Below, one piece after another: positions 21,843-39,047 of a DNA stretch of 64,000 nucleotides. The position numbers and the translations under genes are program-made. Source of the stretch: a phage; sequence record PZ019084.1; one strand, given 5' to 3'. The stretch's first letter is position 1. The number at the start of each line of letters is the position of its first letter. The notes under the pieces were generated by a model. That model saw only the letters and a program-made list of their open reading frames with translations. It was not told where the DNA came from and made no database searches.

Positions 21843-22085
21843 TTATTCCTTAATTCCTAGTACTTGTTTAAAAGTCTCGTCGTAATCAAGACTTTGACCT
21901 GTTTGTTCTTTATGTTTGTATATAATATCACTTACTTCTGATAGCATATTTTTATATGAACGAGTTAAAGCAGATTTAAGCACGCTGTATCTATCAGGAA
22001 ATTTACCATGTTCATTATAATACGCTATTGCTAATTCACGGACTGCCCTTTCAGCAGTCTCCATATATTCTTTACGCTTTGTCAT
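21843..22085 (-). CDS. hypothetical protein (80 aa)
   Basis: Small ORF. Confidence 0.5.
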
Positions 22086-22368
22086 TTTCTTCTCGGTTAA
22101 ATCGGTGTTTGCAATGACGGCATTTATAACGAAGATTACTAGTCTGCCAATGGACTAATTGAACCTGTTCAGTACCGCATTCAGGACAATTAGGAACGTT
22201 TTTAGAAGCCCTTTCGCGACGTTCAACCATAGCCATAATGGCATCCCAAGCTGGAGGTTTAAAATCTAAATCGTCAGTAACTAGCAGTCCTTTATCAAAC
22301 CCAGCGCATGGAGTCCATTCAGGAAAATCTGAAGCTTCGGCAATATCTTCTAATAGACGCTTTTTCAT
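22072..22368 (-). CDS. zinc-ribbon protein (98 aa)
   Basis: CPECG...CRHCKHRF paired CxxC motifs. Confidence 0.5.
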
Positions 22369-23294
22369 TTCAATACCTCAATAGCATTACGTAAACCATT
22401 TGCTTTTGCATTAAGAGCTTTTAACAATTTAGTGTGTTCGGCAATCTGGGCTTCAACTTCAATCAAACGAGCATTGAGATATTCGCGTTCTTCGCTCAGG
22501 CTATCAACCTTTTCTACTTTAGGTTCTTTTACAATTGGCTTGTATGTATTAGGGTTCTTCAGTTTAATTAGAATGCGTGAGCTGTATAACATTGAACCAT
22601 TATCTTCGGTTTCGTCATACATTTCTACTACGTCCATGATTTTTAACATCATGCGGAGTTTATAAGACAACGAACGAATAGTTTTGTTGTGCTTATTAAT
22701 TTCTCTAGCTGTCATGGTGCCGAGATTACGTGAGTAATAATAAGGAACCTGGATATTAATTAATACTGATGAACCACCTGGCTTGTGTGTTACTTCATCA
22801 GCAATAACCCAGTCCTTAACATGAACTGTATTTGTACGGTCATCACCCGCGGTAAACAGTTTGCGAGCATGCTTAAAAAGCATATTCACTTGGTCATTGA
22901 ATTGACAAGCAAATTTATCAGCAAATTTAGTTTCAGGAATGGTAGATAACCAATCAGCCAAATGGGTCTTTTTAACATCGTTAACAATAGTAAATTCAAC
23001 CAAATCGGTTATAGATGTCGCAGATTTAATGAAGCTCGGCTTCATAAAGTTTTTAATGTTATCACTAGCTACAGTAGAAGATAACAGACGAGAACGTTTA
23101 AACCATTGAAGCAAATTGCCTAACGAATGAGAATAAGCGTTTTGAGTATCTTTACAGATATGATTTTCCTGGCCAACATATTGAAGGAAATCACGAAGAA
23201 TATTATTGATTATTGCTCTGTGCCCAATCTGATAATTACGATGTTTAGTAATAAGACTGTCAAAATAATCAATATAATGTTTACGAGTTTTCAT
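22365..23294 (-). CDS. hypothetical protein with C-terminal coiled coil (309 aa), member of tandem paralogue array
   Basis: N-terminal MKTRKHYIDYF resembles the neighbouring paralogues; C-terminal heptad-repeat helix. Confidence 0.6.
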   Translation of the reverse strand: MKTRKHYIDYFDSLITKHRNYQIGHRAIINNILRDFLQYVGQENHICKDTQNAYSHSLGNLLQWFKRSRLLSSTVASDNIKNFMKPSFIKSATSITDLVEFTIVNDVKKTHLADWLSTIPETKFADKFACQFNDQVNMLFKHARKLFTAGDDRTNTVHVKDWVIADEVTHKPGGSSVLINIQVPYYYSRNLGTMTAREINKHNKTIRSLSYKLRMMLKIMDVVEMYDETEDNGSMLYSSRILIKLKNPNTYKPIVKEPKVEKVDSLSEEREYLNARLIEVEAQIAEHTKLLKALNAKANGLRNAIEVLK

Positions 23295-28879: not shown

Positions 28880-29893
28880 TCATTTATAATAACTTCGGTG
28901 GTTTTCAAGATAAACCCTCTCAAGGAAGTCATCCCAGAAACCCATGTCTACTTTTTGCTGCATACCGTTCTTAGAAGCTTCAATGGATGCTGCTTCTACT
29001 TGATCGACCACATCTTCCAAAAACTCTTGAACAGTTTTAAATGGATGTTTACCCAGCTTCACGTCGAGAATAAATGGAGCGTCTTGAAGTGGATAGACTA
29101 AGTCACCAGTTTTGTAAATTTCCAATAGTTGGAGTCCACCACGACAAGCATGACTCAGAGCTTTCCAGTCAATGCCCTCATTCGCTTCAGCCTTACGAGC
29201 ACGTTCGCCATATTCAGCATCTAATTTATTCAGTGACTGTTTAAGCTCGATAAGAGAAAGCGTTGTTTGATATTTACGACCCAACACAGTGTAGAACGTT
29301 TGTGGGCCTGTTTTCTCATGATTATGGAATACCCATTCACAGAATTCGTTCTCTGGAAGACGATGCTTAATATCTTCAACTTTAGTTCGACGAAGTCTAT
29401 CAGGGATTCCTTCTTGATAATCAACCCACTGATCGGGGATTTGATTAACTACTTTCAATACATCACGCAATGCGGCCAAACGAGAACCCTTGACGCCGTA
29501 TTTAGAAGCTTGCTTGCGAACATATCCTAAATAGGATTTCATGTTAGTCGTATAAAAACGAGAACGATTGTCTTGAATAAACTTCCATACATCAGGCAAA
29601 TCAGATTTAACTACCAGTTCAGGTGGAGTGTGAAGCATATCCAATGCTACAGTTTCACCATCTGCTGCTAATTTAAAGAAATATTTAAGACTATATAGTT
29701 CATGGTCAATATCATCTTTAGTGTTTTTAGATGATGTATTGTTAGTGTTTTTGCTCATATGCTCTTTAACATTTCCGATAAGAATATCGCGAGCAGGAGG
29801 AACAAAGATTTCTTTAAAATCTACATCAGATTCTGGAGTAGAAGTTCCATAAAGATGACTACCAAAATAGCTTTTCATTACTGTTTTCATCAT
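28880..29893 (-). CDS. nucleotidyltransferase-fold protein (337 aa)
   Basis: Pol-beta-type NTase signature GSHLYGTSTPESDVDF (GS...DxD) plus downstream acidic residue; ATG overlaps upstream stop. Confidence 0.6.
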   Translation of the reverse strand: MMKTVMKSYFGSHLYGTSTPESDVDFKEIFVPPARDILIGNVKEHMSKNTNNTSSKNTKDDIDHELYSLKYFFKLAADGETVALDMLHTPPELVVKSDLPDVWKFIQDNRSRFYTTNMKSYLGYVRKQASKYGVKGSRLAALRDVLKVVNQIPDQWVDYQEGIPDRLRRTKVEDIKHRLPENEFCEWVFHNHEKTGPQTFYTVLGRKYQTTLSLIELKQSLNKLDAEYGERARKAEANEGIDWKALSHACRGGLQLLEIYKTGDLVYPLQDAPFILDVKLGKHPFKTVQEFLEDVVDQVEAASIEASKNGMQQKVDMGFWDDFLERVYLENHRSYYK

Positions 29894-30351
29894 TCAGCCT
29901 TATATTCAATAACAGGACATACTTTAGCTTTACGCGCTTTTAAAAATTCGACGATAATAGATTTCTTGGGTTGAATAGGAGGTAAACCCTTATACGCCCT
30001 ATCAATATTTTCTACATGTAAAGCATAATCCTTTTTCCATTTATAATCTTTATATTTTTCATGCAGTTGTGCAGGAATAACAAATGAACCAATAATAAGT
30101 AAAACAAGCAAAATGGCAAGTATAAATGCTGATGGAATAAGAGTCCATAAACTACCAAAAATAAGCCATTTCTGTATGATTTCTGCGCAGATAATAGTTA
30201 GACCTGCGAGCATAGTACATCCGAATAAAGAAACGAAAAATGTAGGGATAACAATAGACCAAAAATACGCGCACAGTGTCTTAGGTCGTTTCCATTCGTC
30301 GTTAAACATTTTGAATAATTTATAATGCCAAGAGTTTTCATTAATAATCAT
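29890..30351 (-). CDS. membrane protein (153 aa)
   Basis: Three predicted transmembrane helices, basic C-terminus. Confidence 0.6.
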   Translation of the reverse strand: MIINENSWHYKLFKMFNDEWKRPKTLCAYFWSIVIPTFFVSLFGCTMLAGLTIICAEIIQKWLIFGSLWTLIPSAFILAILLVLLIIGSFVIPAQLHEKYKDYKWKKDYALHVENIDRAYKGLPPIQPKKSIIVEFLKARKAKVCPVIEYKAE

Positions 30352-30353
30352 AA

Positions 30354-30875
30354 TTATCCTTTCATTGAAGGTGTAACAGTTGTTAAATACTTAATCATAG
30401 CTTCAGCTTCTGATTTTGATAATGAAATTTCTCCACTGTTTTGACGAATAGAAATAAAATCCGGATGACGGTCACCACCAGCTTTTAAAACACACATATA
30501 AGTATCAGTTTCATCTTCAATATCTGAAATGATTGAAGCAGTTCCGCATGAATGCGGTTTTTGATAAATCAATGCAGCTTTTCTTCCACCGTTTGACTGT
30601 TCATAAACTTTTAACACATCAAACAAATCACTTCTTTTATCAATAGCTAAGATGTTGTTTTCATCTTCAATGTTAAATCCTTCGGATACTTCATAAAGTG
30701 TCACCCATAAATCACCTATATCGATAGTAGCATTTACTTTTCCATGGCTTTCAAGAGCATGACAAATTTTCTTGATTTCGTCATAACTCATTTTAATAAT
30801 ATCATCTCCTTGAATAAGGAAGATGTCATTTTTAAATTCAACACGAATTAAACCACTTTCACTTGAAATAAACAT
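30354..30875 (-). CDS. hypothetical protein (173 aa), tandem paralogue
   Basis: C-terminal motif SEAEAMIKYLTTVTPSM shared with next gene. Confidence 0.55.
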   Translation of the reverse strand: MFISSESGLIRVEFKNDIFLIQGDDIIKMSYDEIKKICHALESHGKVNATIDIGDLWVTLYEVSEGFNIEDENNILAIDKRSDLFDVLKVYEQSNGGRKAALIYQKPHSCGTASIISDIEDETDTYMCVLKAGGDRHPDFISIRQNSGEISLSKSEAEAMIKYLTTVTPSMKG

Positions 30876-34378: not shown

Positions 34379-34566
34379 TATTCTTCTACGTGCTGTTTAC
34401 GACCTTTCTTATCAATAAAGGTATATTCAACGAATGTTCCAATATAGTCTTTATCTACATTATGTGGACTATTAATTGGGCATTTAGTACTGCAAATGCG
34501 TTCCCATTGACGAATAATTTCCACTTTGTTTTTAGGATCAAACGGATGCGGGTAATGTACTTTCAT
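34354..34566 (-). CDS. hypothetical protein (70 aa)
   Basis: tk.3 position. Confidence 0.45.
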   Translation of the reverse strand: MKVHYPHPFDPKNKVEIIRQWERICSTKCPINSPHNVDKDYIGTFVEYTFIDKKGRKQHVEEYCLKVTWL

Positions 34567-35017
34567 AATCCACCACTATTAAATCAATATCAGGAGTAAA
34601 CATGTCAATTAATTTAGAAACCTTATCCCAATCACCACCAGCAATACCGCAACCTATGCGTGGAATGTAAATTACTGGTTTAAACAAAAGGGTTTCTGCC
34701 TGTAGATTTAATTCTATCATGCAGTTTACTAAAGCACCATAATCAAGATTAGGACCCGGTTCGTATTGCGTATACAGGTTATAGCATATACCAAATCCTG
34801 TAGGACTATGTTTAAAAACAATAGACATATCGCCTAATTTATCACGAGAACCGTACTCGGTAGTGGTTTTATCTATTTCTAAAATTTTGGGATAGGCTCT
34901 TGCTAATTGACCTGCTACGCCAGAGCCCATTGTGTGGAAGCAATTGCACCCGTGCGCAATAATATTACCTTGAAGAAATAGGGCGACAATATCGCCCTTG
35001 ATATATTTTACAATCAT
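34538..35017 (-). CDS. macro-domain protein (ADP-ribose binding/processing), 159 aa
   Basis: Macro-domain-like motifs HGCNC, GSGVAGQLA and PRIGCGIAGGDW. Confidence 0.6.
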   Translation of the reverse strand: MIVKYIKGDIVALFLQGNIIAHGCNCFHTMGSGVAGQLARAYPKILEIDKTTTEYGSRDKLGDMSIVFKHSPTGFGICYNLYTQYEPGPNLDYGALVNCMIELNLQAETLLFKPVIYIPRIGCGIAGGDWDKVSKLIDMFTPDIDLIVVDYESTLPASV

Positions 35018-35361
35018 CTAGTACTCAATCCTCGATTATAAGAATCTACCAAACGGTCAACCATTGAATGACAAGCGGCTTTATCTTTCTCCTCCGCAAC
35101 TGAACATTCTAAGGTATTCCACTTTTTAGCATATCGTTTTAATAAAGTATCGTTCTTGTATCTACTTGTTTTATCTCTTTCTCCGTCTTTATATGCATAT
35201 ATTAATTTCTGCGCAAATTCAGCTTGGCATGCTTTATTTTTCCCACAATAATCCGCGGCAGTACGGTTTACATACTCTCTAACTTCAGAATATGATATAT
35301 CTGCTGATGCAGAAGCAGAAAATGAAATTAATCCTATACATAAAACCAAAATTTTAGTCAT
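35014..35361 (-). CDS. vs: secreted protein in the T4 vs position (115 aa)
   Basis: Signal peptide; assignment by position and size. Confidence 0.5.
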   Translation of the reverse strand: MTKILVLCIGLISFSASASADISYSEVREYVNRTAADYCGKNKACQAEFAQKLIYAYKDGERDKTSRYKNDTLLKRYAKKWNTLECSVAEEKDKAACHSMVDRLVDSYNRGLSTR

Positions 35362-36387: not shown

Positions 36388-36427
36388 ATAGAAAAATTAT
36401 ACCACAGTCAAGAGGAAAAGTAAACAG
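36388..36427 (-). promoter_or_regulatory. T4-type early promoter
   Basis: GTTTAC (36425-36420). Confidence 0.5.
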
Positions 36428-36748
36428 TTATTCTTTAAATCTAATCAATTTATTCATAGACTTTGTAACTTCTGCACGAACCTCATGTAAGTTTTTAAGC
36501 TGTTCAAGACGCTGCTCGTAGTAAGCAATTTCATCTTCTTCGAGACAGTCTTGTGAATCTTCTTTAAGATAACGTGCATAATCCTGGAAAGCTTTACGGA
36601 CTACTTCTTGGAAGTCATCAAGACTTTGAATTTTCTTAGGAGCAACAGATACACGACGAGGGGCAGTATAATACTCATAACCAAACCCTGCGCTTAATTG
36701 AGCCATTAATATTTTTCCTCTGGTTGGAACACAGCACGACAAGCCCAC
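36428..36748 (-). CDS. hypothetical protein (106 aa)
   Basis: vs.3 position. Confidence 0.5.
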
Positions 36749-36972
36749 ATACTAGCTTCTTTGAGTTTCGTTTTAGCAATAGTTAACTGATCGAGGCTTT
36801 CAGCATAATTCTTTGCGAATTCGCAGTCTTCACAATTATCTAGTGCTTCCCAGAATTCGTCATATAAAGCGTCAAAGATAAGTCCTAAACGAACTTCAGC
36901 GTCTTTGATAGCATTCACTTTACCGATTTTCTCTTCAGTGTGCGGCTTATAACCTTTAATGTCTTCAATCAT
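36706..36972 (-). CDS. hypothetical protein (88 aa) in the vs.4 position; candidate Acb2-type cyclic-nucleotide sponge
   Basis: By position only; the T4 vs.4 product is reported to antagonise CBASS. Confidence 0.45.
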
Positions 36973-38573: not shown

Positions 38574-39047
38574 TTATTTGAATGATTTGACGTACTGAAT
38601 AGAGCCTTTGCTATTCACGAAAGCGATTTTACCATTTTTATTATACATGGTAGCAGTACGCTGATAACCATAAGTTTGCTTACCAGATTGATAACCAACT
38701 AATGCAAAATTATCTTCACCCATTTTATTCTGTTTAGCGCGGATGCGTTCATGACCGTGTGCCATAAGAACCTTAGCGTCGCCAGTTGCAATGGATCTAC
38801 GAGTTTTTTCATCTTCAACTGTATTAACAAAATCGTCAAATGAATCAAATTTAGCATGGGATTTATTATACAGTTTTCCATCTACTGCATAATTATATCC
38901 TTGTACATCCATCTCAACTTCTGTACCGTCATCCAATACAGCAGTGATTTTTTGACCTTTTTTAAATTTCAAAAGATCAGTAAAAGATTCAGCAATAATT
39001 TGAGAATTAATAGCTGCTTCAGTAATAAATTCTTGGTATGTTTTCAT
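38574..39047 (-). CDS. capsid-targeted internal protein (157 aa)
   Basis: N-terminal capsid targeting sequence MKTYQEFITEA with prohead-protease site ITE/A. Confidence 0.7.
   Translation of the reverse strand: MKTYQEFITEAAINSQIIAESFTDLLKFKKGQKITAVLDDGTEVEMDVQGYNYAVDGKLYNKSHAKFDSFDDFVNTVEDEKTRRSIATGDAKVLMAHGHERIRAKQNKMGEDNFALVGYQSGKQTYGYQRTATMYNKNGKIAFVNSKGSIQYVKSFK

Follow-up and report, generated by a model that had tools for sequence, protein, structure and literature searches.

The 64 000 nt stretch of phage DNA analysed here (sequence record PZ019084.1; the window) carries on its minus strand, at 34538-35017, an open reading frame (ORF) encoding a single-domain protein of 159 amino acids. 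The window is from a Tequatrovirus, with best GenBank relatives that are approximately 96-97 % identical over 24 kb and none that is identical, and its gene order and sequence follow those of phage T4 between gene 42 and a point past gene 8. The local order is regB, vs.1, vs, the 159-residue ORF, tk.3, tk.2, tk.1, and tk. Because the ORF fills the slot between vs and tk.3, and the neighbouring genes encode proteins 85-100 % identical to their T4 counterparts (96.5 % for vs, 90 % for tk.3), T4 tk.4 is its orthologue by position. The T4 gene was recently renamed adfM (anti-DarT factor macrodomain) in a preprint, because its knockout makes T4 sensitive to the DarTG2 system. The window protein is 58 % identical to T4 Tk.4 (NP_049723) over its full length (E 1e-70); the two share the position between vs and tk.3, the length class, a TQ motif, and the family-invariant residues. 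An earlier note on this DNA, made from the sequence alone, had identified a macrodomain protein and had made a functional guess that was broadly right, however it had not recognized the gene as T4 tk.4.

The vs stop codon and the tk.4 start codon overlap as ATGA (35014-35017, minus strand), an arrangement typical of translational coupling, and the 3′ end of tk.4 shares 29 nt with tk.3. Just upstream of regB, a consensus scan identified a T4-early-type promoter, GTTTAC-N17-TGgTATAAT (36396-36424, minus strand), which on its sequence is likely to be the promoter of the overlapping run of genes that starts regB-vs.1-vs-tk.4. The placement of the macrodomain protein among early genes in the earlier note is consistent with this overlapping run downstream of a predicted early-type promoter. 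Within the tk.4 coding sequence, upstream of tk.3-tk, there is also a MotA-box-like middle-promoter match, TGCTTTA-N13-TAGAAT (34711-34736, minus strand), at which the T4 allele has CGCTTTA. This pattern is enriched across the whole window, with 22 matches observed and approximately 7.8 expected.

The allele cassette at tk.4

Alignment of the DNA against T4 revealed a sharply bounded divergent allele cassette at 34520-34979, spanning the tk.4 body together with ~45 nt at the start of tk.3. The window is identical to T4 up to ~34979 (codon 13), diverges as a block to ~34520, and is near-identical again beyond. Seventy minus-strand ORFs in positions 1-39100 of the window have T4 counterparts, and tk.4 is the most divergent of them (58.1 % amino acid identity, against a median of 96.6 %). 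Residues 1-14 and 21-38, the ADP-ribose-binding segments, show 100 % identity when the window and T4 proteins are compared, while residues 39-77 are 44 % identical and residues 132-155 are 21 % identical. A deletion of 13 nt relative to T4 alters the 3′ end of the gene, such that the window protein is four residues longer and its ORF overlaps tk.3. T2 and T6 carry the T4-type allele. Megablast matched the window-type cassette, with at least 80 % of the cassette query covered at one place, to 306 phage records, among them PP01, HY01, RB6, and pSs-1; the surrounding region, by comparison, was matched in 693 records.

Directly 5′ of the divergent cassette, in codons 7-13 of tk.4 (34980-34998, minus strand), there is a perfect 7 bp G+C-rich hairpin, AGGGCGA-uauug-UCGCCCU, which is identical in T4 and in phage Nami. 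RNA folding gave eight pairs with a 3 nt loop, and -14.3 kcal/mol for the segment. This hairpin could act as a translational element, could mark a recombination boundary, or could have arisen by chance where the conserved KGDIVAL is encoded. After tk.4, the next most divergent ORFs are the counterparts of nrdC.3 (22365-23294, minus strand; 60.6 %) and nrdC.2 (22072-22368, minus strand; 67.3 %). Judged by this divergence, these genes of unknown function may be further allele cassettes.

Macrodomain class and active site

The claim that the gene encodes a macrodomain protein was borne out both by a profile search and by the predicted fold. The protein scores 32 bits with the Pfam Macro profile PF01661, for which the gathering threshold is 22 (E 1.3e-7), over profile positions 2-117 of 118, and matches PHROG 335 with E 1e-71. 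An AlphaFold2 model, made from a family alignment of 71 phage and bacterial sequences, has the three-layer alpha/beta/alpha macro fold (pLDDT 94.6, pTM 0.89). The nearest neighbours in sequence and structure belong to the ALC1-like macrodomain class (TARG1, DarG, SCO6735, and Poa1p), clearly apart from the MacroD, viral, and PARG classes. The best Foldseek match is human TARG1/OARD1 (PDB 4J5R/4J5S; E 4e-10, TM 0.73-0.82), which is aligned by hhalign with a probability of 98.4 % and has the KGD and PRIGCG motifs in common with the window protein. When the family profile is used, BT1257 (6e-20) and SCO6735 (5.6e-16) both rank ahead of DarG (1e-11).

A macrodomain label is already present on homologues in many GenBank records. 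Two more specific labels, 'RNase III inhibitor' in the GenBank entry for phage Nami and 'O-acetyl-ADP-ribose deacetylase (regulator of RNase III)' in JGI, are unsupported and look like name transfers from Escherichia coli YmdB.

The three motifs quoted in the earlier note are present, at residues 22-26, 31-39, and 119-130. In the first, HGCNC (34940-34954, minus strand), H22, G23, N25, and C26 are invariant in the 71 family sequences. N25 aligns with N27 of SCO6735, the Asn conserved in DarG, and N23 of the PhiKZ protein AdfM, in which replacement of this residue by Ala reduced activity (PMC13309987). The second, GSGVAGQLA (34901-34927, minus strand), makes up the first GxG loop for phosphate binding and begins helix 2; in it, the window and T4 alleles have 100 % identity. 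Within the family, G33 and A35 never vary and G31 is present in 64 of the 71 sequences. The third motif, PRIGCGIAGGDW (34628-34663, minus strand), is the second substrate-binding loop, with P119, G122, G124, and W130 invariant. It is nearly identical to the PRIGCGLAGGxW loop of SCO6735 and BT1257 (PRIGCGIAGGDW in the window, compared with PRIGCGLAGGTW). In this loop the window protein keeps the family consensus GCGIAGGDW, while T4, T2, and T6 have GAGIGKGNW, the T4 allele departing from the consensus at G126, K127, and N129. The conservation of the GD motif, of the Asn and GxG of loop 1, and of the GxG of loop 2 suggests that the protein binds ADP-ribose.

Variation in the first loop was seen in phage T6, the tk.4 of which (locus L087, 9132-9599) is 99 % identical to the T4 allele but has TMKAGVAG in place of TMGSGVAG. 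The change, G31K/S32A, alters the phosphate-binding loop where 64 of the 71 family sequences have Gly, and might affect activity.

The residues T83-Q84 (34766-34771, minus strand) were located by hhalign against Thermus aquaticus DarG and TARG1 and by multiple sequence alignments. Q84 stands at the site filled by the catalytic Lys in DarG (K80) and TARG1 (K84) and by the essential Gln85 in SCO6735, and is kept in all 71 family sequences, phage and bacterial. The window protein has neither residue of the TARG1 catalytic dyad, with Q84 in place of K84 and A126 in place of D125. Because of the invariant Gln at the catalytic Lys position, the family resembles the stand-alone Gln-type ALC1-like macrodomains SCO6735 (Streptomyces coelicolor, PDB 5E3B) and BT1257 (Bacteroides, PDB 2FG1/2AFC), rather than the DarG antitoxin. 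These two proteins are 54 % identical to each other and only 25-30 % identical to the window protein. With the SCO6735 sequence taken from PDB and its residue numbering confirmed before alignment, the corresponding pairs in the window protein and SCO6735 are H22/H24, G23/V25, N25/N27, and Q84/Q85, and the GCG[IL]AGGxW loop is found in the window protein and in both SCO6735 and BT1257. The match to the Gln-type chemistry of SCO6735 singles out Q84, H22, and N25. Judging from these alignments, catalysis is probably not of the Lys-dependent kind described for DarG and TARG1.

In a different explanation, the protein is a metabolite enzyme, either an ADP-ribose-1''-phosphate (Appr-1''-p) phosphatase like Poa1p or an O-acetyl-ADP-ribose deacetylase, and the DarTG2 effect is secondary or specific to the T4 allele. 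This is implied by the old RefSeq annotation of T4 tk.4, 'phosphatase; contains A1pp phosphatase motif', and a resemblance to Poa1p is all that supports it; for Poa1p, a literature search gave no paper describing the mechanism. The Poa1p match is strong over the N-terminal half only, BT1257, TARG1, and SCO6735 all outscore Poa1p with the family profile, loop 2 is of the SCO6735/BT1257 type, and the sole reported tk.4 phenotype is sensitivity to DarTG2. To our knowledge there is no source of Appr-1''-p in T4 infection. A metabolite enzyme is therefore considered improbable, although such an activity and the hydrolysis of ADP-ribosylated thymidine are not mutually exclusive.

Membership of the DarG antitoxins was rejected on several grounds. 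The protein scores 27.7 bits against the NCBIfam DarG model NF048014, for which the cut-off is 250, and Q84 replaces the catalytic Lys (K80 in T. aquaticus). It is a single domain of 159 residues with no C-terminal DarT-binding domain and no adjacent DarT, and it sits in a phage early operon. Identity to the DarG macrodomains of T. aquaticus and Mycobacterium tuberculosis (PDB 5M31/5M3I) is approximately 21 %. By contrast, gp104 of phage PhiKZ, which was independently given the name AdfM in a 2026 paper (PMC13309987), is of the DarG type. It matches M. tuberculosis DarG with E 9e-25 and is approximately 21 % identical to the window protein and 17 % identical to T4 Tk.4. DarG and gp104 carry FPTK with the catalytic Lys, while the window protein has LYTQ. 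Given these residues and the low identity, comparison of the sequences indicates that two unrelated macrodomain subfamilies share the name AdfM, and the biochemistry of one is therefore not simply transferable to the other.

Relatives with 33-44 % identity are encoded at no fewer than 501 bacterial loci from many phyla, counted with one genome taken for each species. Among the best 80 of these loci, there was no tblastn match with E <0.8 to DarT within 5 kb on either side, using a single Pseudomonas aeruginosa DarT2 query, and very divergent DarT homologues could therefore have escaped. No conserved neighbour was found in the same 80 loci, the most widespread being present in eight of the 80 and reflecting lineage synteny only. 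Likewise, at the Pelagimonas locus, for which precomputed Pfam hits were used, the neighbours are unrelated and include no DarT or other toxin gene. Since neither DarT nor a recurring neighbour was found beside the bacterial genes at these loci, the Tk.4 family, in contrast to AdfN and PhiKZ gp104, would not seem to be an orphaned antitoxin. From its distribution, it looks like a stand-alone macrodomain family common to phages and bacteria.

DarTG2 and the predicted activity

The function of the T4 gene is indicated by genetic data. When a T4 transposon library was used on a DarTG2-expressing host, tk.4 was the single significant gene (bioRxiv 10.1101/2025.11.20.689424), and a clean T4 tk.4 knockout becomes sensitive to DarTG2 (bioRxiv 10.1101/2025.11.20.689424, November 2025). 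Previously, T2 and T4 were found to remain DarTG2-resistant without adfA and adfN, and a further factor was predicted (PMC11825919). The authors of the preprint propose, without biochemistry, that T4 AdfM removes ADP-ribose from DNA (bioRxiv 10.1101/2025.11.20.689424). The earlier note had suggested that the protein counters ADP-ribose-based host defence signalling. Counter-defence fits the phenotype of the T4 orthologue, however DarTG2 ADP-ribosylates DNA and is not a signalling system.

Enzymes of both types are known to reverse this DNA modification. SCO6735 cleaves DarT-made ADP-ribosylated thymidine on single-stranded DNA faster than DarG or TARG1, and leaves guanine-ADP-ribose uncleaved; it rescues E. 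coli from DarT, and its Q85A and Q85E variants are inactive (PMC9411070). In the mechanism proposed in that study, the Val25 backbone holds the water that starts the reaction, and Gln85 positions the substrate (PMC9411070). PhiKZ gp104 removes ADP-ribose from DarT2-modified TNTC oligonucleotides in vitro (PMC13309987). The DarTG2 phenotype of the orthologue and the SCO6735-like Gln site favour a Gln-type thymidine-ADP-ribose glycohydrolase, and it is likely, if well short of certain, that the window protein is such an enzyme, acting on DNA to counter DarT2 by Gln-type and not Lys-type chemistry. The window allele, at 58 % identity, would be expected from its sequence to have the same activity as the T4 allele.

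Under this proposal, early expression of the regB-vs-tk operon during infection would yield the protein, which would bind ADP-ribosylated thymidine in single-stranded phage DNA, written by host DarT2 at TNTC motifs. By hydrolysing the N-glycosidic bond, it would free the ADP-ribose and allow replication and packaging to proceed, and the phage would be resistant to DarTG2. As in the SCO6735-type route, the invariant Q84 would position the substrate and a backbone-held water would start the cleavage.

Several points weigh against a DNA glycohydrolase. The evidence for T4 tk.4 is genetic and comes from a preprint, and the only phage AdfM validated in vitro, PhiKZ gp104, is of the other subfamily. 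Of 155 aligned positions, 65 differ between the window allele and the T4 allele that was tested, and the same specificity is therefore not guaranteed. There are also differences from SCO6735. Two of its lysines, K34 and K89, are not conserved, the window protein having S32 and G88 instead, and the phage protein is acidic (isoelectric point ~5.0), compared with the electropositive DNA groove described for SCO6735 (PMC9411070). After the Gln, SCO6735 and BT1257 have a 'mobile loop' that exceeds that of the phage proteins by 5-6 residues. An extended loop (+5 residues) has been given as the mark of the SCO6735 subclass and proposed as a DNA clamp in SCO6735 (PMC9411070); the phage proteins lack this mark, and the bacterial relative P0094 is intermediate.

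The protein could instead neutralize DarT2, or another ADP-ribose-based defence, without catalysis, by direct binding and inhibition or as a sponge for an ADP-ribose-derived molecule. Inhibition of DarT2 is conceivable because catalytically dead SCO6735 (Q85A) inhibits DarT by interaction, as do dead DarG (K80A) and TARG1 (K84A), with SCO6735 the strongest (PMC9411070), and the differences between the tk.4 alleles lie outside the ligand-binding loops, as expected of a fast-evolving protein-protein interface. Against this, the invariance of the catalytic-site residues across bacteria and phages argues for an enzyme, and a purely non-catalytic role is given little probability here.

The earlier note's other suggestion, that the protein regulates phage ADP-ribosylation, was not supported. 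In this reading, the macrodomain would erase or tune the ADP-ribosylation, or RNAylation, of host proteins by the phage enzymes Alt, ModA, and ModB. T-even phages do encode three ADP-ribosyltransferases (PMC8120803, PMC9503650), and the activity of SCO6735 and TARG1 extends to the removal of Glu/Asp-linked ADP-ribose on proteins. The phage transferases, however, modify arginine. We know of no ALC1-like macrodomain that cleaves the Arg-ADP-ribose bonds made by Alt, ModA, or ModB. A search of the window for a phage ADP-ribosyltransferase as a partner for the macrodomain found none, and by tblastn the window has no counterpart of the 161-residue modA-like ORF of ECO07P3 and T2. The tk.4 phenotype in T4 is also specific to DarTG2, and this role is the least probable of those considered, very unlikely to be the function of the protein. 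In the two relatives, the 161-residue ORF lies between nrdC.10 and nrdC.11 (ECO07P3, L089, 8942-9427; T2, L086, 1790-2275), and in ECO07P3 it is annotated 'modA_2 NAD-protein ADP-ribosyltransferase'.

As another possible target, the RNA ADP-ribosylating system CmdTAC was weighed. Although T4 carries tk.4, CmdTAC restricts it strongly, and protection against this system is therefore unlikely.

Rather than being DarG antitoxins acquired by phages, the Tk.4 proteins of T-even phages could form a phage branch of a large family of stand-alone bacterial macrodomains with Gln-type in place of Lys-type catalysis, and the two co-circulating Tequatrovirus alleles, the T4/T2/T6 type and the window type, would be functionally distinct. 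The alleles might suit different DarT2 variants, or other toxins that ADP-ribosylate nucleic acids, perhaps by direct toxin contact on the variable surfaces at residues 39-77 and 132-155. This reading is speculative and, on balance, we doubt it. Natural Tequatroviruses with at least two very different tk.4 alleles provide a ready-made experiment on the specificity of the anti-DarT factor.

The gene itself is textbook T4 content, its A1pp/macro annotation is years old, and its counter-defence role comes from the 2025 preprint. The gene and its likely role against DarTG2 are already known; the divergent allele, the Gln-type site, and the absence of DarT beside the bacterial genes surveyed are modest additions. 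The T-even and PhiKZ proteins named AdfM belong to different subfamilies with different residues at the catalytic position.

Other features of the window

Immediately upstream of tk.4, vs is located at 35014-35361 (minus strand). Its T4 counterpart was the gene most strongly depleted in minimal compared with rich medium (bioRxiv 10.1101/2025.11.20.689424).

Further upstream, the vs.4 orthologue (36709-36972, minus strand) encodes a protein 100 % identical to T4 Vs.4, which we take to be the anti-CBASS sponge Acb2. If so, there are at least two counter-defence genes within 2 kb of the early region.

Two regions, 29890-30875 and 38574-39047 (minus strand), differ from T4 in gene content. The T4 homing endonuclease gene mobD is absent from the window, and no denV counterpart was found in the window when compared with the T4 loci. 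At the position of mobD there are two ORFs, of 153 and 173 residues, without a match in the T4 loci compared, and ORFs of the same lengths are present there in T6 and ECO07P3. At the place expected for the ipII region there is an ORF of 157 residues.
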